64,000 bases of DNA from Patescibacteria group bacterium (GTDB taxonomy: Bacteria > Patescibacteriota > Minisyncoccia > Phycocordibacterales > UBA1550). Location: positions 37,934 through 101,933 of the forward strand of contig JBBTWP010000003.1 in assembly GCA_038062675.1 (NCBI GenBank). The letters are read 5' to 3'. Below, in pieces: positions 6,772 to 30,831 of this stretch; the stretch's first letter is position 1; every line of letters starts with the position of its first letter. The notes under the pieces were generated by a model. The model was not told the origin of the DNA, made no database searches, and worked only from the letters and a program-made list of their open reading frames with translations. The position numbers and the translations under genes were made by a program.

Positions 6772-6972
6772 ATGGCAAAATCATGTCCAATCTGTAATAA
6801 AGGCACCATCATCGCGGGAGGTTACTCCAACCGCGTGCGTGCAACCAAGTTCAATCCTGTCGGAAAGAACCGCAAATACCCAAATCTTCAGTGGGCACCG
6901 CTCGCCGACGGCTCACGCCTCAAAGTATGCACTCGTTGCATGAAGGCCGGAAAACACTTGGAAATTAAGTAG
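6772..6972 (+). CDS. rpmB: 50S ribosomal protein L28
   Basis: 66 aa; 'CPICNKG...TKFNPV...PNLQ...KVCTRCMKAGK' is the L28 family pattern. Confidence 0.85.
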   Translation: MAKSCPICNKGTIIAGGYSNRVRATKFNPVGKNRKYPNLQWAPLADGSRLKVCTRCMKAGKHLEIK

Positions 6973-7040
6973 TTTATCAACTGCCCCCACAAAGAAAAAG
7001 GAGGTTGCCCTTGGGCAACCTCCTTTTTCTTTGTGGGGGC
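6891..7040 (+). repeat. Direct repeat copy 1 (rpmB 3' end plus terminator, ~150 bp)
   Basis: Near-identical to 7792..7941, with a few substitutions. The substitutions include compensatory changes in the hairpin stem and an inverted loop ('cccttggg' versus 'cccaaggg'). Confidence 0.9.
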
Positions 7041-7042
7041 AG
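6981..7042 (+). terminator. Long GC-rich hairpin terminator after rpmB
   Basis: 'ctgcccccacaaagaaaaaggaggttgccc ttgg gcaacctcctttttctttgtgggggcag' has perfect ~29-bp arms. Confidence 0.6.
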
Positions 7043-7076
7043 TTACCGAGGATCGTCCTTGTCACCAGAAGTAAAA

Positions 7077-7364
7077 CTACGTCAACTGCACACTCTTTCC
7101 TAATGCATGCGCAACACGATTAAGCGTTCCGAGTGAGATGCTGTGCTTTCCGCTCTCAATACGTGCAACAACAGACTGGGGCATTTGCGCCTTTTTTGCA
7201 AAAGTTTCTTGGGTCAACTTCTTTTGAAGGCGGAGATGCTTTATCTCGCTTGCAATTTTTAACCTAAAAAATTCTTCGTCGTATGCTTCTCTAAATTTTG
7301 GAGACTTTAATTGTTTTTTAAGTATTTGTTCAAACGTTTTAGTTTTTGGAAGTTTTTGTGCCAT
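7077..7364 (-). CDS. HTH XRE-family antitoxin (HigA-like)
   Basis: 95 aa; C-terminal HTH 'LTQETFAKKAQMPQSVVARIESGKHSISLGTLNRVAHALG' is XRE type. Lies immediately downstream of the toxin-like ORF. Confidence 0.65.
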   Translation of the reverse strand: MAQKLPKTKTFEQILKKQLKSPKFREAYDEEFFRLKIASEIKHLRLQKKLTQETFAKKAQMPQSVVARIESGKHSISLGTLNRVAHALGKSVQLT

Positions 7365-7416
7365 ATATTTGTGTTCCTATAATTATGAACCTATATTGAA
7401 ATGCGCCTAAATATTT

Positions 7417-7719
7417 TTATTTCATCATTTTATAAACATTCACTGCTCTCTGTATTTCCTGTGGTGGCGTCTTTTGAGTTTTCTTGATAAACCCTGATAC
7501 AAAATAAATTGCATCTTTCTTTACAAAGAAGAGAATTCTGTACCTTTTTACAATCAACTCGCGAATGGGACTTTTAAGCAATTTTGTATAAACATTATCA
7601 AAATTTGTCTCCATCATTTTGATACTTGCTGAGACTTTCGCGCGATCTGTTTCAGGAATTTGCTCAAAAAAGCTCAGTGCGTCATCAAAGAACTTAATGT
7701 TAAATTTCTTCACAACCAT
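7417..7719 (-). CDS. RelE/ParE-superfamily toxin, phage Gp49/HigB-like (DUF891-type)
   Basis: 100 aa; '...RYRILFFVKKDAIYFVSGFIKKTQKTPPQEI' matches the conserved 'hhhhhGFiKKTQKTP' C-terminal signature of Gp49-like addiction-module killers. Toxin-first order with a downstream XRE HTH gives HigBA-like architecture. Confidence 0.55.
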   Translation of the reverse strand: MVVKKFNIKFFDDALSFFEQIPETDRAKVSASIKMMETNFDNVYTKLLKSPIRELIVKRYRILFFVKKDAIYFVSGFIKKTQKTPPQEIQRAVNVYKMMK

Positions 7720-7791
7720 TATTCCTGCAATAATTAATATAATCGACCCAAGTTGAGTATAGCAAAATTGCTATACTCATGTCAAACGAAT

Positions 7792-7941
7792 GTGGGCACC
7801 GCTCGCCGACGGCTCACGCCTCAAAGTATGCACTCGTTGCATGAAGGCCGGAAAACACTTGGAGATTAAATAATTTACCAACTGCCCCCACAAGGAAAAA
7901 GGAGGTTGCCCAAGGGCAACCTCCTTTTTCCTTGTGGGGGC
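7792..7941 (+). repeat. Direct repeat copy 2 (orphan duplicate of rpmB 3' end plus terminator hairpin)
   Basis: Encodes the same C-terminal peptide '...WAPLADGSRLKVCTRCMKAGKHLEIK*' as rpmB but lacks the 5' part of the gene. Hairpin at 7882..7943. Confidence 0.9.
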
Positions 7942-8031
7942 ACAAAACTATTTCAAAATTACACCACAAACCTTTTTCCCCAAGGTCTCACCTCGGGTGT
8001 CCACGAGGACGATCCTTACCATGGGCTATCT

Positions 8032-11000
8032 CTAATACACCTTAAAAATACCTTGAGTCCCATCGACGCCACCGTCGTCGCAATAATTTACAGCTGAGGA
8101 GGAAACGAGTTCAACTCTCTCTATTTTCTCTGTTTGCAACGTGCTGAGTCCTACTCGCTTTAAAATTGCCCTCATTAGTGGGAGTGACGGAACTGTCGGA
8201 TTTCCGGCATGTGCACAGTATCCACTTCCTGCGCCAGGCCATCCAGGGTAACCACTTCGCGCCCATTCACAATACTGACCTTCATATACTTCCGCAAGAT
8301 TGGCATTTTTAGCATAAGAGCACCTAAAATAGAGCGTAATAGGTGTCCGAATCGTCACCGTCACCGATTTTGACACGGTTCTATTATTGCCTCCCAAGCA
8401 TACTAATTTGTAAGTGTGGCTTGAGGTAAGGGACCCTGTATAATAAACCCCACCAGAACTAAACTTAACTCCATCCCAATCCCCCCCACCACCAGACCCT
8501 GTGCAGGAAATAACATCTTTTGACGACCACACGAGGGTTGTCTCCGCCCCAGCATAGGAAACATCGGGACTAGCGGAAGTCAACGTAACCGTCGGGTCCT
8601 TTATCTTTACCGTTATTTTCTTTTCCACAGAACCCGCGGCATTTGTACACGTTAGTGTATATGGAGTGTCCTTATTAATAGGGCTGAGTGTTTGTCCCGT
8701 AACGACAAAACTGGTAATATTTTGATTGTCATTCCACCCTGTAGCAGAGCAAGAATCCGCATTATAGACTGTCCATTCAATTTTTGGTGTCCCATTTAAT
8801 CCGATTTGAAAACAATCTCCATCTGAAGAACTGCAGGGGTTTAGTTTGTTTTCGTCAGCAACATATGTCGACTTGTCATGATTGGCGGTAAAGGATAGTA
8901 TCCCTGGTTTCACCTTTACGGTCACCGATTTCTCAACAAGACCACCGGGACCCGTACAGGTGAGAATGTAATTTGCCGTCTTTTGGAGTCCGGATATCGT
9001 CTGTTGCTTGCTCAATTCCGGCTTGTTTATGTCGTACACTACCCCACTCCACCCCCCAGACGCAGTACACGAAGTTGTGTCGGCAGAAGGATTCCAGAAA
9101 AGAGTGGCCGAGTTATTGTAATCCACGACAATACTAGGGTTACTGCCACTACCACTGCTTACATCAGTTGTGCCATTTACACCCTTTGCAATCAGCGTCC
9201 CCGTAGGAAGCGCAAGGAGCTTCACGGTGACAGGAGTGACAGATTTAGTCCCTCCGGGTCCTGTACAGCTCAAAGTATAAGTCTTGTAGGTGTTAGCAGG
9301 ACGCGTAATAGCCGCGACCGTACTGGTTCCAGAGACAGGCTTTGCTCCACTCCATCCACCACCTGCCGTACACTGTGTTGCATTTTCAATATTCCAGACA
9401 AGTTTGGGTTGTGTCCCAGAAACAATTTCTGTCGCCTCGGCATAAAAATCACCCTTAGGAAGAACTTTGATGGTCACTGACTGTGGTTTGGACTCCCCGC
9501 CGGCACCAGAGCAGGTAAGAACGAGTGCCTGCGTGGTGGTAAACGGACCCACAATCATCGTACCAGAAATCTCCTTTGTGCCACTCCAAGGTTTTGTCAA
9601 ATTCTCACCACCGGATGCAGTACATGAAGTGGCACCCTTTCCTGCTGTCCATGTGATATTGGTCGTCTCGCCGTCTGGCACCTGGTTCGGACTTGCACGC
9701 AAAGCACCTGCTGTCGGAAGGGCAACAACACTCACGCTGACTGATTTTGAAACTGAACCGCCCGCGCCCCGGCAATTTAGACTATACGTTGTTGCGCGAG
9801 TGGTAGGAGCCGGTGTTTCTGAGCCCGAAGATTCTTTCATGCCTGTCCACCCCCCAGATGCGGTACATGAACTCGTTCCCTCAGAAGACCATACGAGTGT
9901 AGGGCTTGTGCCATACGGGATTGATATTGACTCTGCAGAAAACTCCATTGTGGGCTTTACAGAAGGCGATCCCGCCAAAACTTGTGCTTCCACTCTTATG
10001 GTAACTGTCTGCGGAACAGAATCTCCCCCCGGTCCGGTGCAGGTTAAAATATACTTCTGTGTGGCAGTGAGTGGGCCAACAACTTCACTGCCTTCAGCTG
10101 TCTTCATGCCATTCCAAGCTCCGCTTGCCGTACACGAAGCTGCATTACCAGTAGCAGACCACGTGAGTGTTGCGTTGCCATTGTAGGGAACAATATTTGG
10201 CTCCGCAACCAGCGTCCCTTTTGGCACACCGAGCACTCTAACGGTTACCGACTTTGTCGTCACCCCTCCGCGCCCAGTACACTTTAGAACATACGTCTTC
10301 GAGGAGACAAGCGGACCAGTGGATTCCGTTCCTGTGGTTGCTTTTCTTCCACGCCAAGACCCAGAAGCATCACACACCGTCGCATCAGACGAAGACCATG
10401 CAAGGGTAGTGGTGCCTTTATAGGGCACAGGATTTGGCTCTGCAGTCAAACTCCCTGAAGGAAGAGGAATGACACTCACCGTCACCGAAGAAGTTACACT
10501 TCCACCCCGCCCTGTACATTTAAGAAGGTATGTCTTCGTTGACAACAATCCGCTTTCTTTTTGATTCCCCGCTATCTTTTTCTCTCCACTCCATCCCCCT
10601 GATGCGACACACGACTCGGTTTCATTCGACGAAGACCACGTAAGCATAGTGTTGCCATTGTAGGGAATAGGGTTTGGGCTTGCATCTAGTCTTCCTGTAG
10701 GAAGTGGGATAACATTCACCGTAAGAGACTCAACTAAAGACTCACCGTTTTCTCCGGTGCATTTCAGGTCATAGGTACGTGCGGAAGTAAGGGGACCAGT
10801 AGAGAATGTTCCTGAGGTTGCTTGCTTTCCTTCCCAACCGTCGAGAGCAAGACAAGAAGTACTGTTGACGGAAGACCATGAGAGAACTGCTTGGCCATTG
10901 TAAGGAACAATAGTTGAGTCGGCACTGAGCACGGCTTTGGGATAGAGAACCTCAGGTCGAGGTGCAAACGGTGTGGGAAACGGATCCACGAATGCGGTTG

Positions 11001-11112
11001 GTCCGTCTATGGGAGTTTTTGGGGTTGCCACCAAAACATAGGCAATGATTGCCCCCACAAGAACAATGACCACCAGTCCAATAATTTTAAATGCGAGAGG
11101 AATATCTTTCAT
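8032..11112 (-). CDS. Large cell-surface protein with N-terminal TM anchor and ~10 tandem ~85-aa Ig-like repeats
   Basis: Start at 'MKDIPLAFKIIGLVVIVLVGAIIAYVLVA' (hydrophobic anchor). Repeats follow the form 'PYNGxxxLxWSSxNATSCxASGGWSGxK...KTYxLxCTGxGG...VTVxV', each with two conserved Cys. The C-terminal ~100 aa is Cys/Trp-containing and non-repetitive. Confidence 0.7.
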   Translation of the reverse strand: MKDIPLAFKIIGLVVIVLVGAIIAYVLVATPKTPIDGPTAFVDPFPTPFAPRPEVLYPKAVLSADSTIVPYNGQAVLSWSSVNSTSCLALDGWEGKQATSGTFSTGPLTSARTYDLKCTGENGESLVESLTVNVIPLPTGRLDASPNPIPYNGNTMLTWSSSNETESCVASGGWSGEKKIAGNQKESGLLSTKTYLLKCTGRGGSVTSSVTVSVIPLPSGSLTAEPNPVPYKGTTTLAWSSSDATVCDASGSWRGRKATTGTESTGPLVSSKTYVLKCTGRGGVTTKSVTVRVLGVPKGTLVAEPNIVPYNGNATLTWSATGNAASCTASGAWNGMKTAEGSEVVGPLTATQKYILTCTGPGGDSVPQTVTIRVEAQVLAGSPSVKPTMEFSAESISIPYGTSPTLVWSSEGTSSCTASGGWTGMKESSGSETPAPTTRATTYSLNCRGAGGSVSKSVSVSVVALPTAGALRASPNQVPDGETTNITWTAGKGATSCTASGGENLTKPWSGTKEISGTMIVGPFTTTQALVLTCSGAGGESKPQSVTIKVLPKGDFYAEATEIVSGTQPKLVWNIENATQCTAGGGWSGAKPVSGTSTVAAITRPANTYKTYTLSCTGPGGTKSVTPVTVKLLALPTGTLIAKGVNGTTDVSSGSGSNPSIVVDYNNSATLFWNPSADTTSCTASGGWSGVVYDINKPELSKQQTISGLQKTANYILTCTGPGGLVEKSVTVKVKPGILSFTANHDKSTYVADENKLNPCSSSDGDCFQIGLNGTPKIEWTVYNADSCSATGWNDNQNITSFVVTGQTLSPINKDTPYTLTCTNAAGSVEKKITVKIKDPTVTLTSASPDVSYAGAETTLVWSSKDVISCTGSGGGGDWDGVKFSSGGVYYTGSLTSSHTYKLVCLGGNNRTVSKSVTVTIRTPITLYFRCSYAKNANLAEVYEGQYCEWARSGYPGWPGAGSGYCAHAGNPTVPSLPLMRAILKRVGLSTLQTEKIERVELVSSSAVNYCDDGGVDGTQGIFKVY

Positions 11113-11279
11113 GAAGTAATGTTCCGTGTTTACCGTCAATAACAATTGTCAGTAAACCTACCCCCTACAGTATACAAGCATCTTGATTTTTGGGCAATGC
11201 GAAATGTGCAAAACAAAAACCCCCCGAGGCAAAGCCTCGGGGGGTTTTTGTTTTGTTTGCATGCACAACTATATTATTT

Positions 11280-12623
11280 TTACTTCGAAGTAACTGTCTC
11301 AACTGTCTCGATACTTGGGAATCCTTTGCAGGTAAGGTTGAAAATGGCTATTCCAGAAAGTGAAACAGTTGAGAAACTAACCGCTTGTGTTCCTGAGAGA
11401 GCTTTTGCGCCACTCCAGTTGCCTGACGCCGCACATGAAACCGCGCCCACCGTTGACCATGTTACCGTCTTTGCTGGCCTGTTGATACTGAAGTTAACCA
11501 AAGGGGGTATCATGACCGAAGATGGAGCCGAGGTACCTCCAGGTCCAGAACATGTCAGAGAGAATGAAGTTGGGGAACTAATACCCGTGACACCCTGCTG
11601 TCCAGAGAGCCCTTTTCCTCCCGCCCATCCACCGGATGCAGCACAAGAAGTTGCGTTTGCAGATGACCAAGTAAGAGTTGCGTAGTATTTTGTAGTCAGC
11701 TTGCCCGCATTTTTGTACGAAAGGGATGCTGTTGGTGCAGAGATGGTAACGGTTACTGTTTTTGGAACACTTGCGCCGCCGACCCCATTGCACGTTATTG
11801 TGTAATCTCTTGGGGAAGTAGTTATGTTGGAAATCGTTTGATTCCCTGCAGTATCTATAGTTGTCCCCGCCCACGCACCACTAGTCGTGCATGAAGTTGC
11901 ATCAGTCGAGGTCCATGAAAGCACCGTGCTCCCCCCAAGAGAGACAGGGTTTGAACTTGCAGTGAATGATGTTACTGTTGGAACAGGAGGTGGGGAGACA
12001 AAGGGAGCGACAGTAATATTTATTACATCAATATCTATATCAGTAGGTTCAGTGCCCGCTCCTCTTGTACACGTTAAGGTATATGTGGCACTTGTCGTAA
12101 GAGTGCCAAGCGGTAAACTTCCTGAGAGTTCTTGTGGTCCCGACCAAGAAAGGGACTCTCCCCCAGACGCTACGCACAAATCTGCGTTTGTTGATGTCCA
12201 GCGGAGCGTAGTGGACTCTCCCCAAGCAACACTCGCAAGATCTGAATAAAATGTATCAATAGAGACAGGGGGAGAAGGAGGTGTGCCCCCGCCCACTGAT
12301 GGCGTCGTCCAACCTACCCCACTTGAAGTATACTCACCTTTTGCGTTTTGGGTTGGAGCGACAAACGTAAGCACTTGCCCCAGAGCCCCCCCAGGAACAA
12401 CAAGCCCTGTTGTAACCAAAACAGCGGGTTTTGAGGTGTCGCCACTATCAATGACCAAGTTTCCCTTCTTTGTCTGTTGTACACTTCCCGTCGTCAAAGG
12501 CGCATCCGCATTTCCATTGGGTGGTGCAGCAGTAGGAAGAACCCATGCTGAAGCAAAACTAATGCCAAACGATAGGATGACAGCAAGAGCAATGAGTTTA
12601 ACGTTTTGAGCGATGTTTTTCAT
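11280..12623 (-). CDS. Secreted protein with the same Ig-like repeat family (paralogue of 8032..11112)
   Basis: Signal peptide 'MKNIAQNVKLIALAVILSFGISFASA'. Repeats such as 'LxWxSTNAxxCxASGG...TLTC'. Confidence 0.65.
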   Translation of the reverse strand: MKNIAQNVKLIALAVILSFGISFASAWVLPTAAPPNGNADAPLTTGSVQQTKKGNLVIDSGDTSKPAVLVTTGLVVPGGALGQVLTFVAPTQNAKGEYTSSGVGWTTPSVGGGTPPSPPVSIDTFYSDLASVAWGESTTLRWTSTNADLCVASGGESLSWSGPQELSGSLPLGTLTTSATYTLTCTRGAGTEPTDIDIDVINITVAPFVSPPPVPTVTSFTASSNPVSLGGSTVLSWTSTDATSCTTSGAWAGTTIDTAGNQTISNITTSPRDYTITCNGVGGASVPKTVTVTISAPTASLSYKNAGKLTTKYYATLTWSSANATSCAASGGWAGGKGLSGQQGVTGISSPTSFSLTCSGPGGTSAPSSVMIPPLVNFSINRPAKTVTWSTVGAVSCAASGNWSGAKALSGTQAVSFSTVSLSGIAIFNLTCKGFPSIETVETVTSK

Positions 12624-14837: not shown

Positions 14838-15710
14838 TCATTTGTGCTCCCCACGCACCGTTTCCCCATCACTCTTAAAAATGAGTGTCCCTTGTTCGGC
14901 AGTGCTCCGCGCAGAAATCTTCAATTCTTCCAAAAGCGCAGTCACTTCTTTGTGTGGGTGCCCATACTTGTTGTCTTTGCCTGCGGAAATGATTGCGTAC
15001 TCTGGATTTACTGCCGAAAGGAATTCACACGAGCTCGATGTGCGCGAGCCGTGGTGCCCCAATTTCAAAACATCAGTTTTAAGTAGACCACCCTCCCTTC
15101 CCACCAGATACTTTTCGATAGCGATGGGCGAATCCCCCGTAAACAAAAAAGAGGTGTTGCCATACGAGAGTCGCGCAACAATTGAACCCATATTGGTTTC
15201 CCACCCTGCAGTACTTTGGGCAGGGAACAAAATTTCAAGCACCACACCCTCGTCGAGAATAATGCGTTCGCCAGTGCGTGCCAAAATCCGCTTCGCATGT
15301 TCGCGCTCGATGGCATTCTCAAACGCAGCATATGCTCCCGTATCCGATGTGTTCTCGGTCGTCACCACACCATCCACACTCAGACGGTCGAGCACTGACG
15401 GCAACCCACCAACATGATCTTGGTCAGGGTGCGTCGCCAGCACGAGATCAAGCGAACGATCAAAAAACGGCATGACACGCCCAAGCGGTCGCAAGATCGC
15501 CCCACTCGACACACCACCATCAATCAGCATTTGATTCCCGTTCGGCGCTTCTATATAAATAGCATCTCCCTGCCCCACACCCAGAAACGCCACCGTCAGC
15601 ACACCATGCCGATCCGCGCGCATCGTCGCAGTCCAAATAAAAATATTGAGTACCAACAAAATGCCGAGCACTGTCCACGATGCATAATGTTTTGAAATTG
15701 TGCGATTCAT
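14838..15710 (-). CDS. Membrane-anchored metallo-beta-lactamase fold protein, ComEC C-terminal-domain-like
   Basis: 'LATHPDQDHVGG' (HxHxDH-type) and 'LKLGHHGSRTSSS' are typical of the ComEC/Rec2 MBL domain. N-terminal TM helix. Start chosen at the 'MNRTIS' ATG to avoid overlap with the divergent gene. Confidence 0.6.
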   Translation of the reverse strand: MNRTISKHYASWTVLGILLVLNIFIWTATMRADRHGVLTVAFLGVGQGDAIYIEAPNGNQMLIDGGVSSGAILRPLGRVMPFFDRSLDLVLATHPDQDHVGGLPSVLDRLSVDGVVTTENTSDTGAYAAFENAIEREHAKRILARTGERIILDEGVVLEILFPAQSTAGWETNMGSIVARLSYGNTSFLFTGDSPIAIEKYLVGREGGLLKTDVLKLGHHGSRTSSSCEFLSAVNPEYAIISAGKDNKYGHPHKEVTALLEELKISARSTAEQGTLIFKSDGETVRGEHK

Positions 15711-15759
15711 AAATCCACCATACTGAATTCTGCCAACATGATATGATGGGTATATTACC

Positions 15760-16353
15760 ATGATTCCCGACACATCCATCGAAACCATTATCGCCTTCGC
15801 AGGTTATGCAGGAATTTTCCTGCTCATGATCGCAAACGGGGCGGTGTCATTTCCATCAAGCCAAATCCTCTACATCATTGTCGGGTACTTCATTGCACAG
15901 GGTGACCTCGCGCTCGTCCCCGCAGCGCTCGCTGGTTCGGCAGGAAACGCCGTGGGTAATGTCATCCTCTATGAACTCGTTCGTGCACGTGGTCGCGCAT
16001 TCGTCGAGCGCATGAAACTTTTCCCCGCACGCGAACTCGCAAAAGTCGAAATCGCATTCAAGAAAAAAGGTGCGTGGTTTGTTTTCATCGGCAAGCTCCT
16101 CCCTGCTATCAAAGTGTTTGTCCCCATTCCCGCCGGACTCGGCAAAATGCACCGCGGATGTTTTGCGAGCATCATGTTTGTCGCATCATTTATTTGGTCG
16201 CTCGGCTTCATCTCCATCGGCTACTTCTTTGGCAAGTCATCTGACCTCTTTGGCAAATACGCCATCGTCCTCGTCATCGTCGCCGCACTTGTCCTCCTCT
16301 TTTTCTACCGCTACATCAACAGCGAAGAAATCGTCCGCGAGGTGGAGAAATAA
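15760..16353 (+). CDS. DedA / VTT-domain (SNARE-associated) membrane protein
   Basis: 197 aa with multiple TM helices and a DedA-like core 'FIGKLLPAIKVFVPIPAGLGKM'. Confidence 0.6.
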   Translation: MIPDTSIETIIAFAGYAGIFLLMIANGAVSFPSSQILYIIVGYFIAQGDLALVPAALAGSAGNAVGNVILYELVRARGRAFVERMKLFPARELAKVEIAFKKKGAWFVFIGKLLPAIKVFVPIPAGLGKMHRGCFASIMFVASFIWSLGFISIGYFFGKSSDLFGKYAIVLVIVAALVLLFFYRYINSEEIVREVEK

Positions 16354-18410: not shown

Positions 18411-18449
18411 AAAACATTAGCGTTATCGAGACCCTCTCGAAGTTGGGCC
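18411..18449. repeat. 39-bp conserved leader element, copy A
   Basis: 'aaaacattagcgttatcgagaccctctcgaagttgggcc' is an exact direct repeat of 18570..18608. It contains the internal hairpin 'cgagaccctctcg'. Confidence 0.85.
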
Positions 18450-18487
18450 GCTAGTGTCAGTAATATTTTTCATCGTCACGGAAGGGG

Positions 18488-18569: not shown

Positions 18570-18608
18570 AAACATTAGCGTTATCGAGACCCTCTCGAAG
18601 TTGGGCCA
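18570..18608. repeat. 39-bp conserved leader element, copy B
   Basis: Same sequence as copy A. Each copy sits just 5' (on the minus strand) of a Cys-rich micro-ORF. Confidence 0.85.
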
Positions 18609-18646
18609 CTCATGCTTTCAAATAAAGTACCGCCACACGACTTTGA

Positions 18647-19937: not shown

Positions 19938-20779
19938 ACACTCCAACACCCATCATAAAAATTGATGCGCTCTCATCCAAATACCCCGATATTCGCATGT
20001 ATATTAAGGACGAGAGTGTAAACCCTTACGGAACAATTAAGGACCGTCGCAATGCACACATCGCAAAAGAGGCTCTTCGCCTTGGTGTCGACAAACTAGC
20101 AATGATCACTTCTGGGAACAACGGGTATAGTCTTTCAAGGCTTGCGAGTGAAACCAATATCAAAGTCACTTGCATTGTAGACAAGACGGTTAGCGAAGAT
20201 GTTCACAAGAAACTTTCTGAGGTTGCATATCAAGTGATTAAAATAAATCTTCAAGATAAAATTTTGCGTACTGAAGAAATTATTTCCTTTGCGCGCGATC
20301 GCGACGATGAGGTCATTTGGGATGTCACCAATGGGTATGAAGAATCGTACGGCATTGTGGTAAACGAAATTCTTGCGCAACTACCACATGTTGATTACAT
20401 TGTAGTCCCCTTGGGGAGCGGTGGGATCTTTGTGGGCATTGCAGAGCAACTTTCCAAATCTAATCACATTGCAAAAGTAATCGGCGTTGGACCCAAAGCA
20501 AACTATCGGAGCTTTGCTGATAAACTTTCGACACCATGGTCCCCATACACGAAAGCAATCGAAGGGTATGAGAAGCGCGGGCACACTGTTATTCGCCTAT
20601 CCGAATCAGAAATACAAAAAACTTATTTACATTGTCGCAACATCTGCAACTGCGAACCTTCGGCGTCGATTGTTTTTGCAGCACTTGAACATTTTAATTT
20701 CAAAAAAGAAGATACGGTTGTTTTTATAAACTCCGGCAATTCTGAGGCGACAAATTTTTTACATCGATCAATTTCCTAA
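19934..20779 (+). CDS. PLP-dependent fold-type II enzyme (threonine synthase / cysteine synthase superfamily)
   Basis: 'KDESVNPYGTIKDRRNAHI' matches the PALP lysine motif (K-x-E-x-x-N-P-x-G-S/T-x-K-D-R). Glycine-rich 'VVPLGSGG'. Start overlaps the TrmB stop (ATGA). Confidence 0.6.
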   Translation: MNTPTPIIKIDALSSKYPDIRMYIKDESVNPYGTIKDRRNAHIAKEALRLGVDKLAMITSGNNGYSLSRLASETNIKVTCIVDKTVSEDVHKKLSEVAYQVIKINLQDKILRTEEIISFARDRDDEVIWDVTNGYEESYGIVVNEILAQLPHVDYIVVPLGSGGIFVGIAEQLSKSNHIAKVIGVGPKANYRSFADKLSTPWSPYTKAIEGYEKRGHTVIRLSESEIQKTYLHCRNICNCEPSASIVFAALEHFNFKKEDTVVFINSGNSEATNFLHRSIS

Positions 20780-22329
20780 AACTCGTGCTCAGATATTTTT
20801 TTGTTTGGTGAAGTTGTGGTGCGGGGGAAATTTTTTACGACGATGTAGCCGAGGGCGACGTATGACAAAATGAGGAGTGTGAGCGGAAATGTTTTCAAGT
20901 GAAGTGAGCCGTACGGAACTTTTGCAAAAAGTTCGACGATGGAAATAATGTACGCAAGAATGATGTAAGAAATGTATCCGAGCATCGCACCCAAGAGCGG
21001 CACCCATGCGAAGCACGCAACAAGAAGTGCAGCGAGCATCGCAAGTGGGACAGCGGGTAAGACAATGAGGTTGGTGATGAGCCCAACCACCGACGCACTG
21101 CCCATGTGGTAGAGAAGAAGTGGCAGTACAAAAATTTGTGTGGCGACAGTGGCAAGAAAAATCTCGCGCATCATGCTTGGTGTCCGTGAGCGTGAAACAC
21201 CAAAAAAATATTTCTCGAGAATAGGGACCAACACAACAAGCGCGAGTGTAGCCACAAACGAGAGTTGAAATGAAACATCATGAAAAAGAATCATGGGGTT
21301 GTGAAGCACCATGAGTGTACCTGCGAGGACGAGTACACGAAGCGCACTACTCTCGCGACCAAGTGCGCGCGCAATGATGACGACGAGCACCATGATGGTC
21401 GCGCGCACCACCGTGGCCCCACCACCGACAAGCATAGCAAACATCACAATGCCGAACGCGCTCATCACAAGGCGAAGCGTAAACGAAAGCGACCCAGCGA
21501 CGCGCGCGAGCGCGCTCGCAACAATGGCGATGTTGTATCCCGAAAGCACGACAATGTGCACCACTCCCGTTTCACGAAATTTCTGTAACAGCTCTTCGCC
21601 GAGTGATTGTTTGGCACCAAGCAAGACTCCGCCCGCAAGCGACGCCTCAGGCTCGGGAATGACGCGGTTAATATTCTTGAGTAGCACATCTTTCAATGCA
21701 AACAATTTCTCATACACCATGTTTCCTTTATGTTGTGAAGCAACCTCAACTACTGGATAGAGCATCTGATAGAAGATATCGTCGCGTGCAAGATATGAAC
21801 GATAGTCGAACATGCGCGTCTCGGTTTCGCTTGTGAAATTTTTTGGCACCAACATCTTGCCCTGCACGCGCACAACATCACCATACTGAAGTCGCGGGTA
21901 CTCTGCCGTACGCACGAGCACGCGCACACGCTCGTCAAGGACATGGATCGACGGTTGTCCAATAGAACTGACCGATACAACTTCAAAGACAACGTTCGTG
22001 TAGGCGTCGCGAGCATCCACTTCGCGCACTACCAATCCCTCGAGCGTCACGGATTTTCCCACCAGCGAATCCAACACGTGCATGTTTCTCAACAGGCGCT
22101 CGTTGTTAAACTCCTGCCGAAAAACTCCGAGAGCACACGATATCAAGATGCATGAAACAAAGAAACGCTTTCGCGCCTCTCGACCAACGCCGTGCATCAC
22201 CAACAACATGCACGCAAGAAGAAGCAAGAAAAAAATGAACGCCGACCCAAAACGAAAGAGTGACTCGAGAGCCACCCCAACAACGAAACTTATTGTGAAA
22301 CCGTAAAAATAATTGTTCCCCATACTCAC
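20776..22329 (-). CDS. comEC: ComEC/Rec2-family DNA internalization channel protein (transmembrane competence domain, no MBL domain)
   Basis: 517 aa polytopic membrane protein with an N-terminal OB-fold-like region 'YGDVVRVQGKMLVPKNFTSETETRMFDYRSYLARDDIFYQM' characteristic of ComEC (DUF4131 plus competence domain). Confidence 0.65.
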   Translation of the reverse strand: MSMGNNYFYGFTISFVVGVALESLFRFGSAFIFFLLLLACMLLVMHGVGREARKRFFVSCILISCALGVFRQEFNNERLLRNMHVLDSLVGKSVTLEGLVVREVDARDAYTNVVFEVVSVSSIGQPSIHVLDERVRVLVRTAEYPRLQYGDVVRVQGKMLVPKNFTSETETRMFDYRSYLARDDIFYQMLYPVVEVASQHKGNMVYEKLFALKDVLLKNINRVIPEPEASLAGGVLLGAKQSLGEELLQKFRETGVVHIVVLSGYNIAIVASALARVAGSLSFTLRLVMSAFGIVMFAMLVGGGATVVRATIMVLVVIIARALGRESSALRVLVLAGTLMVLHNPMILFHDVSFQLSFVATLALVVLVPILEKYFFGVSRSRTPSMMREIFLATVATQIFVLPLLLYHMGSASVVGLITNLIVLPAVPLAMLAALLVACFAWVPLLGAMLGYISYIILAYIISIVELFAKVPYGSLHLKTFPLTLLILSYVALGYIVVKNFPRTTTSPNKKISEHEF

Positions 22330-22351
22330 TTATTCCATCAAAAGGACATGC

Positions 22352-23095
22352 CTATCGGACACCCCATGCGCTCATAATCGCTCGCTCGTCGTCCGCACTC
22401 GTCGACTTTTTGAACTTCGTTCCCGGCACTCCCTTCACCCGCTTCTCACACTCCGCCCACGTAGCATGCTTCATGAGTTTGCCACCGACGAGACTCAAGT
22501 ATGAATATGCCTTCACTCCGGATTTCGATTTTGATTTTGTTTTCTTTGCGGCAAGTTTTTTTGCGTCACCTTCGACTGGAGTGAGGTCAACTTCATACGT
22601 ACTCCGCGCTCCGTCAAAAAGCTGTGGGAACATTTTGTCCGCACACATCGTCGCAATCTCGTCCGCGCGTTCGTTTCCCGGAATGCCCGCGTGTCCCGGT
22701 GCATAGTTCCATGCGATTGTGCATCCACTCATTTTGAGATCAGCTACCGCGAGTACAAGTTCTTCCCACAAGTCGCGATTGATTACGTCTTCTTTTTTAC
22801 TATTTACCCATCCGTTTTTTTGCCACCCAAACACCCACTTCGTGATGCCATTCAAAACATAGCTCGAGTCTGCACGCACATCGATTGAAAATTCGCTCCC
22901 AAGGTCGCGCACAAATGAGAGTCCCGCGATCGCGGCGCGAAGTTCCATGCGATTGTTTGTCGTGCGCTCTTCACCACCGCCGAGCTCGACGACACGCTCA
23001 CGTGTTGCAACAATCGTTCCCCATCCACCCGGCCCCGGATTCCCGCGCGATGACCCATCCGTGTATATTAAAATTTCTGGTTTCTTCATCATCAC
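22352..23095 (-). CDS. rnhA: Ribonuclease HI with a C-terminal hybrid-binding-like extension
   Basis: 'ILIYTDGSSRGNPGPGGWG...TNNRMELRAAI...WVNSKKEDVINRDLWEEL...NERADEIA' is the RNase H catalytic core. The C-terminal 'KAYSYLSLVGGKLMKHATWAECEKRVKGVPGTKFKKSTSADDE' resembles the RNase H1 hybrid-binding (viroplasmin-like) domain. Confidence 0.75.
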   Translation of the reverse strand: MMMKKPEILIYTDGSSRGNPGPGGWGTIVATRERVVELGGGEERTTNNRMELRAAIAGLSFVRDLGSEFSIDVRADSSYVLNGITKWVFGWQKNGWVNSKKEDVINRDLWEELVLAVADLKMSGCTIAWNYAPGHAGIPGNERADEIATMCADKMFPQLFDGARSTYEVDLTPVEGDAKKLAAKKTKSKSKSGVKAYSYLSLVGGKLMKHATWAECEKRVKGVPGTKFKKSTSADDERAIMSAWGVR

Positions 23096-23098
23096 AGT

Positions 23099-24784
23099 TT
23101 AGCTTTTTTTCATCACGTTCACAATTCGAAGTCGAAGCTCGCGCTTCCCACGAAATGTGTTGAGGTCGAATGTTGCAACAAGGTCGACCTTGTCACCCGA
23201 GACCAACGCTTCATATTTTTTATCCGTCGCAAAAAATAAAATGGCGAGCACGCGAACACCACGTGAGTTTTCGAATGCGAGCTCGAGATGCGCGCGCTCT
23301 TTTCCAAAACGTCGCACGTCGGCAAGATGCACCCCCTCGAACAAAAATGTTGGCTTGGGATTTCCAATTCCGAACGGCGCAAACTGTTCGATGATTTTCC
23401 ATGTCGACCAATTCACGTCGTCGAACGAAAGTGTCGCGTCGATAGTCCACTCCGCTTTTTCTTTTTCAAAACGCACCTTCTGGTACGCACGTACAAGCTC
23501 GTCTTCCATCGTGTGCACACCATCTTGAAGAAGCGAAAAACCTCCCGCGAGTGCGTGACCTCCCACGTTCACAAAAAAACCTTCCGTCACACTCGTCATG
23601 AGTTCAACAAGATTCACCGTACCATCGGAACGACACGAACCTTTGATCGTTCCGTCTTCCGCGCGACCCCACACAAACACCGGACGCGCGTACGCTTCGA
23701 CCAAAGATGACGCAACGAGTCCCGCGAGTCCGGGTCGCCACTCTGGATTACCGATCACGATCACTCCGCGCAAATCTTCATTCGTGTTCCGATGCTCGAT
23801 GTGCTTGCGTGCCTCCTTCACCATACTCGCCACCAAACCTTTTCGTGTTTCGTTTAAGTGCGTGAGGTGGTCCGCAAATTCTTCTGCCTCGCGTTCGTCG
23901 GTTGATGCGAGCAGACGAAACGCGTCGATGGGATTTCCCATGCGGCTTGCGGCGTTGATGCGCGGACCGATCATGAACCCAACATCGTCCTCTACAATAT
24001 TCGCCTGTGGCATGTCCATCTTTGCGAGAAGTTTTTTGAGCCCGAGTCGTGGTGACTTGCGGAGCACTTTGAGACCAAAATACGCAATCGCACGATTTTC
24101 ATTTTTGAGTGGCACCATGTCTGCGATTGTTGAGAGACCCGCCATGTCGAGGAGCCATTTCTCCCAACCCACGGGGACACTCCACGCCTCGCGCCTTCGT
24201 GCAAGAAGCGCACACGAAAGTTTCCATGCTACCCCTGCCCCGCAGAGCATGTTGTCGGGATAGGGATCCGTCGCCTGTTTTGAATTGAGAATCGTGTATG
24301 CCCGTGGCACCACGTCTTGTGGCAAGTGGTGGTCGGTAATGATGACATCCATACCGAGTTCATTTGCACGTGCCACTTCATGTACGTCCGTGATACCACA
24401 ATCCACGGTAATCATGAGGGTCACCCCCTCCCCTGCGAGTTTTTCCACTGCCCCCACATTGAGCCCATACCCTTCGTTGTGCCGATGAGGAATGTAGTTT
24501 TGAAAATGTGCGTAGCTTATCTTTTTGAAAAAATCATGAAGCACCACGGAGCCCGGAATCCCATCGCAATCGTAATCGCCATAAATGACGATTTTTTCGT
24601 TCGCGTCCATCGCCTGCAAAATGCGCTCGACTGCCCGCTCCATATTAAGCATAAGAAATGGATCGTAGATATCGCGCTCATAACTTGGATTCAAAAACTT
24701 TTCCGCCGCCTCTTCCGTCAAAATCCCCCTGTTTTTGAGGAGCGTTTGCGCAAGGAGTGGATATTTCGCCAATTCAGGTGACAT
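23099..24784 (-). CDS. recJ: Single-stranded-DNA-specific exonuclease RecJ (DHH/DHHA1)
   Basis: 'IVIYGDYDCDGIPGSVVL' and 'ITDHHLP' are DHH motifs. Start placed at 'MSPELAKYPLL' (ATG 24784) rather than the extended ORF start at 24907. Confidence 0.8.
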   Translation of the reverse strand: MSPELAKYPLLAQTLLKNRGILTEEAAEKFLNPSYERDIYDPFLMLNMERAVERILQAMDANEKIVIYGDYDCDGIPGSVVLHDFFKKISYAHFQNYIPHRHNEGYGLNVGAVEKLAGEGVTLMITVDCGITDVHEVARANELGMDVIITDHHLPQDVVPRAYTILNSKQATDPYPDNMLCGAGVAWKLSCALLARRREAWSVPVGWEKWLLDMAGLSTIADMVPLKNENRAIAYFGLKVLRKSPRLGLKKLLAKMDMPQANIVEDDVGFMIGPRINAASRMGNPIDAFRLLASTDEREAEEFADHLTHLNETRKGLVASMVKEARKHIEHRNTNEDLRGVIVIGNPEWRPGLAGLVASSLVEAYARPVFVWGRAEDGTIKGSCRSDGTVNLVELMTSVTEGFFVNVGGHALAGGFSLLQDGVHTMEDELVRAYQKVRFEKEKAEWTIDATLSFDDVNWSTWKIIEQFAPFGIGNPKPTFLFEGVHLADVRRFGKERAHLELAFENSRGVRVLAILFFATDKKYEALVSGDKVDLVATFDLNTFRGKRELRLRIVNVMKKS

Positions 24785-24812
24785 AATGGGCATTCTACCA
24801 TATACTGTAAAG

Positions 24813-25631
24813 ATGACTGATTGTCTATTTTGCAAAATCATTGCAGGGAACATTCCCACCGAAAAAGTGTACGAGGATGCAGAGTGTTTTGCATTTCTTG
24901 ACATCAACCCCGTAAATATTGGTCATACACTTCTTGTCCCGAAAGCACACCATGCAAACCTCTATGAAACACCGGATGAAATCCTCGCTCACCTAGCACC
25001 CATCATCAAAAAACTTGCCATCGTGGTCAAAAAAGCCGTACTCGCCGACGGCATCAACATCGAAATGAACAACGACTCTGCGGCAAGCCAGCTCATTTTT
25101 CACACCCACATCCACATTATTCCTCGTTTTTTGAATGACGAGGCGCACTACTGGAAACACAAAGGAAAGTATCATGACGGGGAGATGGCAAGCATAGGGA
25201 AAAAGATGCAAGAAAATTTTAAAATTTTTGAGAATCCCCCATTGGACAGATTTGACACATGGAACATGGCCAAGAAAAAACTCCACGAAGAGACAGATGT
25301 TCCTGACAGATTCCCAAAGGAAGGCGAGGTGTGGATGAGCGTGCTCGGGAAAAATATTGGCTACGAACAAAATGGCGGAGGTGATAATTTCTCGAGACCT
25401 TTATTGATTATCAAAAAGTTTAACAATCACATGTTTTGGGCAATACCACTTTCTACCACACAAAAAAGTCTAGATTTTTATTACAACTTTATTGACCCTA
25501 ACCAGAATTCTGTTTCTGCAATCATCGCACAGCTAAAACTTGTGAGCCTAAAAAGGTTAAAAAGAAAACTTTACGACATGCCTCAAGAAAAACTAGAGGA
25601 CATAAAACGTAAAACGACAGAGCTCTTCTAA
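24813..25631 (+). CDS. HIT (histidine triad) domain fused to a C-terminal MazF/PemK-like domain
   Basis: N-terminus 'MTDCLFCKIIAGNIPTEKVYED...HTHIHIIPRF' is a HIT domain with the HxHxHxx triad. C-terminal ~110 aa 'PKEGEVWMSVLGKNIGYEQNGGGDNFSRPLLIIKKFNNHMFWAIPLSTTQKS...' aligns to the MazF/PemK pattern 'GxhhxVxhxPxxGxEQxGxRPxhVhSxxxxNxxxxxhhhhPhTS'. Single uninterrupted frame. Confidence 0.55.
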   Translation: MTDCLFCKIIAGNIPTEKVYEDAECFAFLDINPVNIGHTLLVPKAHHANLYETPDEILAHLAPIIKKLAIVVKKAVLADGINIEMNNDSAASQLIFHTHIHIIPRFLNDEAHYWKHKGKYHDGEMASIGKKMQENFKIFENPPLDRFDTWNMAKKKLHEETDVPDRFPKEGEVWMSVLGKNIGYEQNGGGDNFSRPLLIIKKFNNHMFWAIPLSTTQKSLDFYYNFIDPNQNSVSAIIAQLKLVSLKRLKRKLYDMPQEKLEDIKRKTTELF

Positions 25632-25784
25632 AACTCGAAACCCCGCCAATTGGCGGGGTTTCTCGGAGCCTTACGGCACTTTATAATTTCATCTTATACC
25701 CAACTGTTGAGTAAGTCAAGTTTTTCTGCAATATGTAATACCAAAGCGAAAAGTGCACCCCTTCCATTATTCTGCCCCACCATC

Positions 25785-27783: not shown

Positions 27784-27845
27784 ACGACCCATGGGGTGAG
27801 AAAATGCGCGGGCATGCCCGCGCATTTTCTCACCCCATGGGTCGT
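27784..27845. terminator. 62-bp perfect palindrome (bidirectional terminator / cruciform candidate)
   Basis: 'acgacccatggggtgagaaaatgcgcgggcatg|catgcccgcgcattttctcaccccatgggtcgt' has no loop and is centred on 'GCATGC'. Lies between the pilus cluster 3' end and the tpiA start. Confidence 0.55.
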
Positions 27846-29238: not shown

Positions 29239-29757
29239 TTAATGCGATTGACCCCGCAGTGCAACAATGCCTTGAACTACCGATGTTCCGGTTTCTGGGG
29301 AATATAATCTAAGAGACACTTGGACTGTAAGGATGGTATTACTCAAAACAATAACAGAAAGAGCAACTACCTGCACACCATTCCCCACCAAAACCCCTTT
29401 ATCAACCCCACCCTCTTTCACAATAAGTTCTCCCGCACTGTTCACCGAGAATTCAATGGTGGTGTTTGTCCCTGTTGCTAGATCTTTCTTTAAAAGTACT
29501 AGTTTATGGGGAGGAATATGAAAGTTGCTGTTTGCGTAATCAATACCGTAGGCGTTTCTTGTTTCACGAAGAATACGCTCAATGGCAGTATTCGCAGAAT
29601 GATTGAGTGCGCGCTGGGCGCGGAGTGTATAAAAACCATTAGTAAGAACGAGAAGTGATTGAACTACGAGACCAGAAAAAATAACCATGAACGCAATGTA
29701 AATGAGCGTCTCAACCAATGTAAACCCCTTTTTATTCCCAATGTGTTTTATGAACAT
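29239..29757 (-). CDS. Prepilin-type minor pilin/pseudopilin
   Basis: Class III signal 'KKGFTLVETLIYIAFMVIF' (G|FTLxE cleavage/methylation motif). Confidence 0.65.
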   Translation of the reverse strand: MFIKHIGNKKGFTLVETLIYIAFMVIFSGLVVQSLLVLTNGFYTLRAQRALNHSANTAIERILRETRNAYGIDYANSNFHIPPHKLVLLKKDLATGTNTTIEFSVNSAGELIVKEGGVDKGVLVGNGVQVVALSVIVLSNTILTVQVSLRLYSPETGTSVVQGIVALRGQSH

Positions 29758-29772
29758 GTTTGTACAAAAAAA

Positions 29773-30297
29773 TTACTGGACATTCCAAAAGTTAGTCATA
29801 TAGGTCACCACTGACTTTGTGGTAGTGCCATTTTTGCCAGCCCATGACACTGAAATCGTTACTTTTCGGGTATTTGGGTCATCCGCACCACCCGCAGTCA
29901 CAATGTCTTTTGTTGCCGCATCACGATTCACATAAGCAGTAACGACCTTCCGTTCAAATCTATATCCATCTAAGGTGTACGGCGCGACAATAGACCATCT
30001 GGAACCACTGAAAGAGAGGTAATACGAAACTCCCGGAGTTAACCCAGCAAGACAAAGACCGTTGCAAAGGGAAGTCCACCCCTCTGCGCGCAAAAGCCCA
30101 ACAATTTCAACGCTCGAAGTGAGGGCCAAGTCCGCTTCAACTATTTTTCGATTGAAATTTGAAAGTTCAAGCGTTTTTTGAAAGAAGAAGAAGACGCTCA
30201 GCATGACAAGAGAGATAATCCCCGCGCCGGTAATAATTTCGATTAAACCAAACCCTCGGTTCTGTGGTGCTTGCGAAGATTTAAAGAGTGGCGACAT
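29773..30297 (-). CDS. Prepilin-type minor pilin/pseudopilin
   Basis: 'NRGFGLIEIITGAGIISLVML' prepilin leader motif. Confidence 0.6.
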   Translation of the reverse strand: MSPLFKSSQAPQNRGFGLIEIITGAGIISLVMLSVFFFFQKTLELSNFNRKIVEADLALTSSVEIVGLLRAEGWTSLCNGLCLAGLTPGVSYYLSFSGSRWSIVAPYTLDGYRFERKVVTAYVNRDAATKDIVTAGGADDPNTRKVTISVSWAGKNGTTTKSVVTYMTNFWNVQ

Positions 30298-30339
30298 AGG
30301 AAAATTATACCATATTATAAACTTTTGTTTGCAAAAAAA

Positions 30340-30831
30340 TTAATCCAAATATACAACTCCCGATGGTCGTACTACAATTGTCGAACTTGCCTGAGGTCGC
30401 CCGACGACACTCAGAGTTGTCGTTGCATTGTTTGATGTCGCGCCGGTGAAAAAATCAAACAAAATATCACTTCCGCCACCATTAACCACAATAGAAGAGA
30501 GTGTTAAATGAGAGTCAAGCAAACGCACTTCATTAGTAACAGCTGTCGAACTATAAGATGCTCCCTGAAAAAGGACAATTCTGTCATCCTGCAAATGTAC
30601 ACCATACTGAAGTCCTCCCTTGGAAGCCATGGTTCCGAGGCGTGCCTTATTCAAAGTAGTCACAATATCTTCCGCACCAACACCCAACAATGTCTGTTGT
30701 CGAAATGTCAAAAAAGGAAGTGTGATCACTGACGCAATAATACCAATAATGCCAGCAACAATAACCAACTCGAGCAATGTAAACCCTCGAGAGAGTCTCT
30801 TGCGCTGACACAAATGAGAAAGTGATTGCAT
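30340..30831 (-). CDS. Prepilin-type minor pilin (GspH/FimT-like)
   Basis: 'SRGFTLLELVIVAGIIGIIASV' prepilin leader motif. Confidence 0.65.
   Translation of the reverse strand: MQSLSHLCQRKRLSRGFTLLELVIVAGIIGIIASVITLPFLTFRQQTLLGVGAEDIVTTLNKARLGTMASKGGLQYGVHLQDDRIVLFQGASYSSTAVTNEVRLLDSHLTLSSIVVNGGGSDILFDFFTGATSNNATTTLSVVGRPQASSTIVVRPSGVVYLD

Follow-up and report, generated by a model that had tools for sequence, protein, structure and literature searches.

A toxin-antitoxin (TA) cassette of the HigB/HigA type was found behind rpmB, the gene for ribosomal protein L28, in a 64,000-nucleotide stretch of DNA (referred to below as the window) from a Patescibacteria group bacterium (assembly GCA_038062675.1, contig JBBTWP010000003.1, positions 37,934 to 101,933 of the forward strand). 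The cassette lies between two copies of the rpmB 3' end. The differences between these copies fit alleles that diverged as working gene ends in different lineages, one of which would have arrived together with the cassette. The explanation that we lean towards is import of the cassette from a related Patescibacteria lineage, anchored by homology in the gene end and completed by one illegitimate joint. The interest of the locus lies in this kind of recombinase-free gene capture in bacteria of the candidate phyla radiation (CPR), and not in the TA pair itself.

The direct repeat at rpmB was first described in the original prediction, which was made from the letters of the sequence and gave its length as 150 nt. 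The repeat was confirmed and proved to be 151 nt long, with 95% identity, 8 differences and a spacing of 901 between copies. Each copy carries the last 26 rpmB codons and a perfect palindromic terminator, the enclosed HigB/HigA cassette measures 750 bp, and the repeat has just two occurrences in the window. As had been proposed, copy 1 is the real end of rpmB and copy 2 is an orphan: its translation is 100% identical to that of copy 1 over the 26 C-terminal L28 residues and ends in a different stop codon. The mismatches fall at 6963, 6969, 6972, 6977, 6993, 7011, 7012 and 7030. Three of the eight are silent and lie in the final codons (GAA>GAG, AAG>AAA and TAG>TAA, copy 1 to copy 2), and a fourth falls in the stretch from the stop codon to the stem. 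The alignment mapped the paired stem change and the inverted loop that had been noted earlier to an A/T to G/C pair in the outer stem (6993/7030) and to a flip of the loop from TT to AA (7011-7012). The mismatches are unevenly distributed, with none in the first 72 nt (6891-6962) and all 8 in the last 79 nt (6963-7041; Fisher P=0.007). The same holds for the coding part alone (0/72 versus 3/10; P=0.001). The anchor gene itself gave a weak match to Pfam Ribosomal_L28 (E=0.0076, under the gathering score), and its assignment is backed by L28 proteins of 77-87% identity that are encoded in synteny in relatives, beside an M50 peptidase gene and rpsL.

What kind of divergence separates a functional gene end from its orphan? 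Codon differences between the functional and the orphan copy were classed as silent or non-silent for seven repeat pairs from the window and from relatives, six of which entered the statistical test (Table 1). All seven pairs together hold 45 silent and 8 non-silent differences, and the six tested pairs hold 39 and 7. One Arg codon differs as AGA>CGT with Arg kept. Duplication in place followed by neutral drift of the orphan predicts that about 37-47% of the differences would be silent; the observed share has P<=1e-7 over the six pairs, with most of the statistical weight coming from relatives' contigs in metagenome-assembled genomes (MAGs). The silent bias is incompatible with neutral drift of an orphan that arose by in-place duplication, and it therefore argues that the copies diverged as functional gene ends in different lineages. 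The ends of the repeats are consistent with this. In six of the seven cases (L090, L091, L186, L084, L088 and ppa) the repeat ends at the stop codon or a few bases from it, leaving the hairpin outside, because orthologous coding sequence still aligns and intergenic DNA does not. The donor of the window cassette would have been close enough for the terminator to align still. Relatives were also used to polarise copy 1 against copy 2, and their M50 and rpmB ends were too diverged to name donors.

Table 1. Inserts bounded by repeats of a gene 3' end, with the codon differences between functional and orphan copies.
Locus	Anchor gene	Repeat	Cargo	Silent	Non-silent
Window	rpmB	151 nt, 95%	HigBA	3	0
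Window	ppa	51 nt, 90%	11.2-kb island: type I restriction-modification (RM), SMODS and SLATT, NUDIX, YgjP	5	1
L090	rpmB	106 nt, 97% (ungapped)	HicB/HicA, then ParE-type pair	3	0
L091	rpmB	64 nt, 100%	HicB/HicA		
L186	tsaD	74 nt, 92%	HigBA, toxin 62% identical to window toxin, same convergent polarity	2	3
L084 (MHUY01000039, 6487-8124)	M50 peptidase	140 nt, 86%	two-gene unit, no Pfam match	17	3
L088 (JAKANJ010000014, 4835-7831), c1 versus c2	M50 peptidase	67 nt, 87%	same two-gene unit as L084, two copies	9	0
L088, c1 versus third copy	M50 peptidase			6	1

Inserts bounded in this way recur at unrelated genes. At L088, three different M50-end alleles separate two cargo units that are 76% identical to each other, which makes this locus a stacked array; L084 has two such alleles. 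The two-gene cargo of L084 and L088 encodes a Cys-containing protein of 150-220 aa and a membrane protein, and the M50-end alleles at these loci differ almost only silently. A second insert with the same signature had been pointed out within the window, and it was confirmed. Behind ppa (PF00719) lies an 11.2-kb defence island whose boundary is a 51-nt copy of the gene's 3' end (region 36412-48365, ppa included). The repeat copies lie at 37002-37052 and 48235-48285, and five of their six codon differences are silent. The cargo comprises NUDIX, a YgjP-like peptidase, a type I RM system (HsdR, two HsdS and HsdM), Bro-N, SLATT_4 with SMODS, and DUF4145; no integrase was found in it. A resident-looking terminator stands behind the orphan ppa copy, at about 48326-48365. 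A 10-mer, TCACCAGAAG, is shared by the spacer of the window cassette (7062-7071) and the orphan copy of L186, and this sharing is probably due to chance.

The region behind rpmB has been a frequent target in this clade. Among 16 relatives whose rpmB 3' end was read, 13 have a single copy, and most of these have a palindromic terminator of their own and a convergent gene directly behind it. The downstream neighbour of rpmB varies widely between relatives and includes ComEC-like genes, pilins, an IS3 element and another TA pair. On the evidence of these 16 relatives, the region downstream of rpmB is a hypervariable insertion hot spot in the clade. In two contigs of Ca. Yonathbacteria CG17 (L007 and L101), apparent IS3-family transposase open reading frames (ORFs), judged by eye from their translations, stand directly behind rpmB. 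Another relative (L085) has, some 1.1 kb downstream of rpmB and without a repeat, a ParE/RHH pair whose identity to the L090 pair is about 80%.

The import that we lean towards would begin in a donor lineage that already had the cassette behind its own rpmB. DNA from this lineage would be taken up, probably by ComEC and type IV pilus machinery, and the incoming segment (rpmB 3' end, terminator, higA, higB and promoter) would pair with the resident rpmB by way of the conserved 3' end of the gene. A homologous crossover near 6963 would leave copy 1 resident up to about 6962, with imported sequence starting at about 6963. The other end of the incoming fragment, close upstream of the -35 box, would then be joined illegitimately at 7791|7792 within codon 40/41 of the resident rpmB. 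As an outcome, rpmB would end in the imported allele and the imported terminator (copy 1), and the resident gene end with its terminator would be displaced 901 bp downstream as the orphan copy 2. The block pattern of the mismatches fits this crossover and a copy 2 that is entirely resident. In a close variant, a circular molecule of gene end plus cassette would integrate by a single RecA crossover, with heteroduplex repair giving the identical block. Genes for DNA uptake and processing are present in the window: ComEC (20776-22329; Competence and DUF4131 domains), a metallo-beta-lactamase (MBL)-fold protein, RNase H, RecJ, PilB (T2SSE), PilC (T2SSF) and several pilins. The gene regions of this kit are 14838-15788, 20776-24907 and 29239-34970. 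For cultivated Saccharibacteria, natural competence accompanied by homologous recombination is documented (PMC10633639).

A broader proposal, which is held tentatively, is that Patescibacteria build recombinase-free "gene-end arrays", in which cassettes are captured serially behind housekeeping genes by transformation-driven, homology-anchored recombination. The targets would include rpmB, ppa, tsaD and the M50 peptidase gene, and the cargo would include TA pairs, RM and defence islands and other two-gene units. Each capture would swap the gene end for the donor allele and move the former end downstream, where the orphan ends would be datable fossils by which donor lineages could be identified. 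Gene gain in streamlined, integrase-poor genomes would then have a general route of this kind.

Several points weigh against import from a related lineage. Empty-site alleles, which the original prediction had recommended looking for, were sought in relatives and in metagenomic unitigs, and none was found at strain level. Searches with the exact L28, M50 and S12 proteins returned nothing but contigs with this same structure and unitigs broken off at the repeat, and scans with the M50 protein of metagenome and genome contigs gave relatives of at most 74% identity. The relatives with a single rpmB end are just 71-87% identical in L28, with no near-identical empty-site allele among them. No donor allele was recovered either, so that the direction of import and the illegitimate joint, like uptake by transformation, stay inferred. 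The boundaries of the cargo are tight throughout: the distance is 6 nt to the -35 box in the window cassette and 6-30 nt to the cargo genes at the other loci. Such boundaries need either strong streamlining or a process more precise than random fragment ends. The spread of one cassette family to different anchor genes is left unexplained. A relative that is roughly 90-96% identical (L169) apparently has the same repeat start, and if the insertion is that old, the 72-nt identical block would need gene conversion. The window locus by itself gives just three silent changes out of three, the rest of the codon evidence coming from relatives and mostly from MAG contigs. Finally, the screen for recombinases, which found no integrase or transposase domain in the 60 larger ORFs of the window, covered only 64 kb of the genome.

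Could the unit have reached this genome with its repeats already in place? Spread of a repeat-flanked unit by ordinary double crossover after uptake, with rpmB as the left arm and the orphan copy or downstream flank as the right arm, would call for no new illegitimate joint at this locus. The shared repeat start of L169, the structure that is identical at the DNA level in contigs L001 and L002, and the presence of competence genes all agree with such spread, which would also account for tight, inherited boundaries. It is nevertheless unlikely. The joints differ for the same cargo and anchor, both between L084 and L088 and among the three rpmB cases, so new joints must be frequent. Under double crossover, differences would also be expected on the left side or along the whole repeat, and not behind an identical left block, and this reading leaves the origin of the first joint unexplained.

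Site-specific integration is similarly doubtful. The repeats would then be attL and attR at the rpmB 3' end, left by a decayed remnant with an addiction module or by a non-autonomous element resembling a cis-mobilizable element (CIME) and moved by an integrase encoded elsewhere. A direct repeat that restores the gene 3' end is the classic att signature, a gene end borne by an element would also be under coding constraint, and the 72-nt identical block can be read as a core. The stacked units of L088 resemble tandem accretion at att sites, and the 3' half of a tRNA-Pro gene is also duplicated in the window. Against this, family searches found no recombinase in any of the seven cargos, in addition to the negative result for the window ORFs, and no core motif is common to the repeats of different targets. 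The rpmB repeat starts at codon 35, 40 or 49 depending on the genome, and the M50 repeats measure 140 and 67 nt. One cassette family sits with ragged ends at unrelated targets, and all cargos are minimal, with no decay debris. On these tests, in which the integrase search covered the cargos and the 64-kb window, the locus fails as an integrative element or CIME. The mechanism shared by the rpmB and ppa inserts that was originally suggested is plausible as such, and it is the integrase-type version of it that does not stand. At the tRNA-Pro gene itself (63569-63640), an exact copy of its 3' 33 nt (63480-63512) lies 56 nt downstream (region 63480-63700, minus strand), and a 5' fragment resembling tRNA-Pro is found just upstream, at about 63650-63700. 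Both fragments have the look of remnants from earlier insertion events at this gene.

The terminator hairpins had been central to the original view of the locus. Both are perfect palindromes (Table 2). The predicted fold energy of hairpin 1 is -61 kcal/mol on the plus strand and -63.5 kcal/mol on the minus strand, and hairpin 2 has -59.4 and -58.3 kcal/mol on its two strands, with z of about -11 to -12 in each case. A function as bidirectional terminators is plausible for each hairpin because the GC-rich inner stem (GGAGGUUGCCC/GGGCAACCUCC) is followed by a U-tract (UUUUUCUUUG) on both strands. A simple terminator scanner did not call the hairpin, owing to its 2-nt loop and long stem. Hairpin 1 is predicted to end both the rpmB transcript (plus strand) and the higBA transcript (minus strand); hairpin 2 is predicted to end the transcript of the convergent gene for a 1037-aa protein and to shield the higBA promoter. 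Through these predicted roles, both repeat copies would be useful after the insertion. The hairpin core occurs twice in the window, with 0 occurrences expected by chance, and it is confined to the two repeat copies, by which a dispersed repeat of the repetitive extragenic palindromic (REP) type was rejected. A known RNA family was also rejected, as only generic hairpin (miRNA) matches below threshold were obtained. Perfect palindromic terminators with unrelated sequences are found behind rpmB in most relatives and elsewhere in the window, and in this clade such long perfect palindromes are the usual form of terminator. Further perfect palindromes (30-34-nt arms, 0-4-nt centre) lie at 2542-2610, 27784-27845 and 58228-58291, each with an A-tract/T-tract inside the stem in the style of the rpmB terminator. 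The last of these overlaps the 3' end of a tRNA-Gly gene (58282-58353).

In the original view, the gene end would have been duplicated and would have diverged later under selection on both hairpins; such copying of 151 nt in place could come about by staggered breaks and fill-in or by local tandem duplication. RM systems with "insertion with long target duplication" have been described in this way (PMC2853133). The paired stem change, the intact perfect palindromes in both copies and the plausible job for both terminators can be read in its favour. Duplication in place is nonetheless improbable, and less convincing than either spread by double crossover or site-specific integration, and the locus failed the test for a true duplication of one target. 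Neutral drift would be expected of the orphans, whereas 39 of 46 codon differences are silent; the 3' half of the rpmB repeat in the window holds every one of its differences; and the six repeats that end at the stop codon do so where the intergenic DNA differs wholly, which a contiguous duplication would not do. The claim that both terminators have been kept by selection after duplication is accordingly not upheld, as the silent bias across the seven pairs fits alleles from different lineages. Nor are the paired change and the loop flip proof of such selection. The allelic model places them in separate lineages, and because the copies fit alleles that diverged in this way, the hairpin differences most likely predate the joining of the two copies. 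Each of the two changes can be made in a perfect palindrome by a single template-switch event (quasipalindrome correction). Perfect palindromic terminators are, moreover, common both behind rpmB in relatives and elsewhere in the window. Paired stem changes between duplicated hairpins should be read with caution as a sign of selection after duplication.

Assembly from collapsed or mis-joined strain variants, an artefact that the original prediction had named as its own possible undoing, is extremely improbable. In its favour, the source is a metagenome and the contig of one assembly ends inside copy 2. Against it, the cassette was present in six contigs, which come from different Hainich H41 groundwater samples and size fractions, and the two of them that were compared as DNA (L001 and L002) are 100% identical to the window over 2.4 kb. 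The identical stretch, at 72 nt, falls short of a typical read length, assumed to be 150 nt. In several runs, Logan unitigs break off precisely 30 nt inside the repeat, where a k=31 branch is expected, and the same architecture is found in unrelated MAGs.

The cassette between the repeats is a minimal type II TA unit without a recombinase, and its pair is an ordinary member of HigBA. The Gp49/HigB-like toxin and XRE antitoxin that had been proposed were both confirmed, including the RelE/ParE fold on which the proposal had been staked. The toxin matched Pfam Gp49 (PF05973) with E=1.3e-13 and 51.3 bits (cut-off 23.9), and its sequence matched HigB of S. pneumoniae (PDB 6af3) with E=7e-4. Its AlphaFold model has a pLDDT of 91.7. 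The top Foldseek matches of the model were HigB 6af3/6af4 (TM 0.74-0.80, E down to 3e-7), followed by M. tuberculosis HigB1 and then by RelE, ParE and YoeB; an activity as a toxin would be expected from these families. The antitoxin matched HTH_3 (4.2e-14, 52.8 bits) and HTH_31 (1.2e-9). Toxin (7719-7417) and antitoxin (7364-7077) are encoded in this order on one strand with a 52-nt gap. Every homologous locus in which the antitoxin is included has the toxin gene ahead of it (the L189 contig stops before the antitoxin). The candidate promoter has a -35 box TTGACA (7785-7780), an 18-nt spacer and a -10 box TATACT (7761-7756), with 11 of 12 consensus positions. A palindrome, TGAGTATAGCAA/TTGCTATACTCA (7754-7779), covers the -10 box and the spacer and stops 1 nt before the -35 box. 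Its core, TATAGCAATTTTGCTATA, is found upstream of the toxin in nine homologous cassettes read, with at most one substitution and in seven other genomic contexts, which suggests that the promoter may be autoregulated through this putative operator. The GC content of the cassette is about 31-33%, as against 45-50% in the flanks, and the cassette has no terminator of its own. Compared with the HigBA systems of S. pneumoniae (6AF3/6AF4) and M. tuberculosis (HigB1, 7NBU), it is alike in having the toxin gene first, a Gp49/RelE-fold toxin, an XRE-type helix-turn-helix (HTH) antitoxin and a palindrome, here a putative operator, that overlaps the candidate promoter. It differs in that its toxin is just 18-27% identical to the solved HigB structures and that it uses the terminator of a neighbouring gene; the window cassette is known here from sequence and model.

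Outside the window, toxin homologues of 44-87% identity were found nearly all in Patescibacteria-type contigs. The DNA homology of the cassette to unrelated loci spans from 7785/7791 (-35 box) to 7083/7084 (antitoxin stop codon) and no further, with identities of 84% (L187), 75% (L183) and 68% (L186). In L188 the identity is 83% over an aligned stretch from 7775 to 7272 only. The left ends of the cassettes are ragged, at 7775-7791. Seven other contexts of homologous cassettes were seen, among them tsaD, a histidine kinase gene, rpsR/efp, and short-chain dehydrogenase/reductase (SDR), patatin and SEC-C genes, with entirely different neighbours at each locus. By these homology limits, the cassette is a discrete, mobile unit. 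Not every cassette of the family is bounded by repeats, because direct repeats were sought around the homologous cassettes of L172, L179 and L183 and none was found. In L188 (about 1060-1245, Logan SRR22387949), the SDR promoter and the first ~66 nt of the SDR gene precede the HigBA cassette, which has no -35 box there; in L185 and L187 an intact SDR gene lies downstream of the homologous cassette. The SDR fragment of L188 may be an analogous duplication of a gene 5' end. A phage or plasmid vector was rejected: viral contigs hold distant Gp49 relatives only (at most 53% identity, partial matches), and the cassette DNA had no match in plasmid or phage collections.

Table 2. Coordinates of the features at the rpmB locus (positions in the window).
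Feature	Position	Strand	Basis or remark
rpmB, L28, 66 aa, stop TAG, anchor gene	6772..6972	+	ORF; weak Pfam Ribosomal_L28 match; syntenic relatives
Repeat copy 1, functional rpmB 3' end (from last base of codon 40) and terminator	6891..7041	+	
Hairpin 1, perfect palindrome, 32-nt arms, loop TT	6979..7044	.	palindrome search and fold energies
Spacer, 35 nt, repeat copy 1 to antitoxin stop codon	7042..7076		not conserved in homologous cassettes elsewhere (homology stops at 7083-7084)
higA-like antitoxin, 95 aa, XRE/Cro-type HTH	7077..7364	-	Pfam
Mobile unit proper: promoter, higB, higA, about 710 bp	7083..7791	-	DNA homology limits, GC dip
higB-like toxin, 100 aa, Gp49 family, RelE/ParE fold	7417..7719	-	Pfam, PDB sequence match, model
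Promoter and operator (putative)	7754..7785	-	consensus match, palindrome
Repeat copy 2, orphan rpmB 3' end (codons 41-66, stop TAA 7871-7873) and own terminator	7792..7942	+	
Hairpin 2, perfect palindrome, 29-nt arms, loop AA	7883..7942	.	palindrome search and fold energies
1037-aa repeat protein, convergent to rpmB, no Pfam match	8032..11145	-	ORF

The gene for the 1037-aa protein is not conserved beside rpmB in relatives. Before the insertion it would have been the neighbour that shared the rpmB terminator. Together with its 447-aa neighbour (8032-12623, minus strand), the encoded protein shows about eight repeats at ~240-nt spacing (~80 aa each) with no Pfam match, and the two may be surface proteins with Ig-like repeats. 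A motif of ~20 nt, AGGATCGTCCTnGT..CACC, lies to the right of copy 1 (7049-7066, plus strand) and occurs inverted between copy 2 and the stop codon of the 1037-aa gene (8003-8022, minus strand); a chance origin of this pair in so small a region is unlikely. A transposon, insertion sequence or miniature inverted-repeat transposable element was rejected, as no inverted repeats stand at 7042/7791 and the sole inverted pair nearby, at 7049-7062 and 8003-8016, does not bound the cassette.

Two other parts of the window deserve mention. A 298-aa ORF (24735-25631, plus strand) carries a HIT-family domain (residues 38-132) fused in frame to a PemK/MazF-like toxin domain (195-295). No adjacent antitoxin is evident, and a hairpin terminator follows at about 25637-25660. 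Between 18270 and 18740, two or three tiny Cys/Gly/Asp-rich peptide ORFs (minus strand) each stand behind a nearly identical 41-nt element (18412-18452 and 18570-18610, 98% identity), with a 94-aa ORF without Pfam match on the opposite strand.

Members of the CPR have tiny genomes with few classical mobile elements, yet they carry many genomic islands (PMC12455944). A literature search found no report of repeat-bounded islands in Patescibacteria. If import through gene ends is correct, homologous recombination together with one illegitimate joint would give these organisms a simple route of gene gain, and orphan gene ends would become markers of donor and recipient lineages.

Several known systems share features with these loci. 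Integron cassettes with attC are likewise small, promoter-poor, often TA pairs, and arranged in arrays with a repeated, hairpin-forming separator. The separator here is instead the coding end of the neighbouring anchor gene, with the hairpin mostly outside the repeat, and no IntI or attI was found in the window; an integron cassette was rejected on these grounds. The cassettes of minimal mobile elements in Neisseria include TA and RM systems. These elements are similar in forming a hot spot between conserved genes, with alternative cassettes that are thought to move by transformation and homologous recombination (PMC3787668; PMC8627216). They differ in using a double crossover in both flanking genes, by which no duplicated gene end is left. 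Integrative elements and CIMEs at the 3' ends of tRNA or protein genes, such as those with dusA-specific integrases (PMC4482086), share the gene-end repeats, the restoration of the gene by the element and the tandem accretion. At the present loci, in contrast, no integrase was found, there is no fixed core or boundary, and one cargo family is seen at unrelated genes.

Published outcomes of homology-facilitated illegitimate recombination are mostly laboratory insertion-deletions. This process has been described in natural transformation of Acinetobacter, S. pneumoniae and P. stutzeri (PMC3240628), and merodiploids can be generated by transformation as well (PMC3784515). The likeness lies in one homologous anchor and one illegitimate joint, the lack of a dedicated recombinase, the dependence on uptake and RecA, and the possibility of duplications. 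The difference is that the joint here would lie upstream of the end of the anchor, with the resident gene end kept as an orphan, a process that is inferred from sequence.

The closest class is "insertion with long target duplication", in which RM units without mobility genes are flanked by repeats of 46-423 bp that are unique in the genome (PMC2853133). These repeats often overlap gene 3' ends and have been found mostly in naturally competent species, and that work did not settle how the insertions arise (Furuta et al. 2010, PMC2853133; Nobusato et al. 2000, Gene 259:99, cited there). No TA example of the class was found in a full-text literature search. If import through gene ends is correct, it would explain this class of RM systems, whose mechanism has been unresolved. 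The present loci are alike in comprising a small unit of selfish or defence genes without mobility genes, direct repeats of more than 30 bp that are not multicopy, and a position at a gene 3' end, and the ppa island with its type I RM system fits the class directly. At rpmB they differ in two ways: the cargo is a TA pair in a CPR bacterium, and the repeats are not copies of one target but a pair of diverged alleles whose codon differences are all silent, an indication of homology-anchored import.

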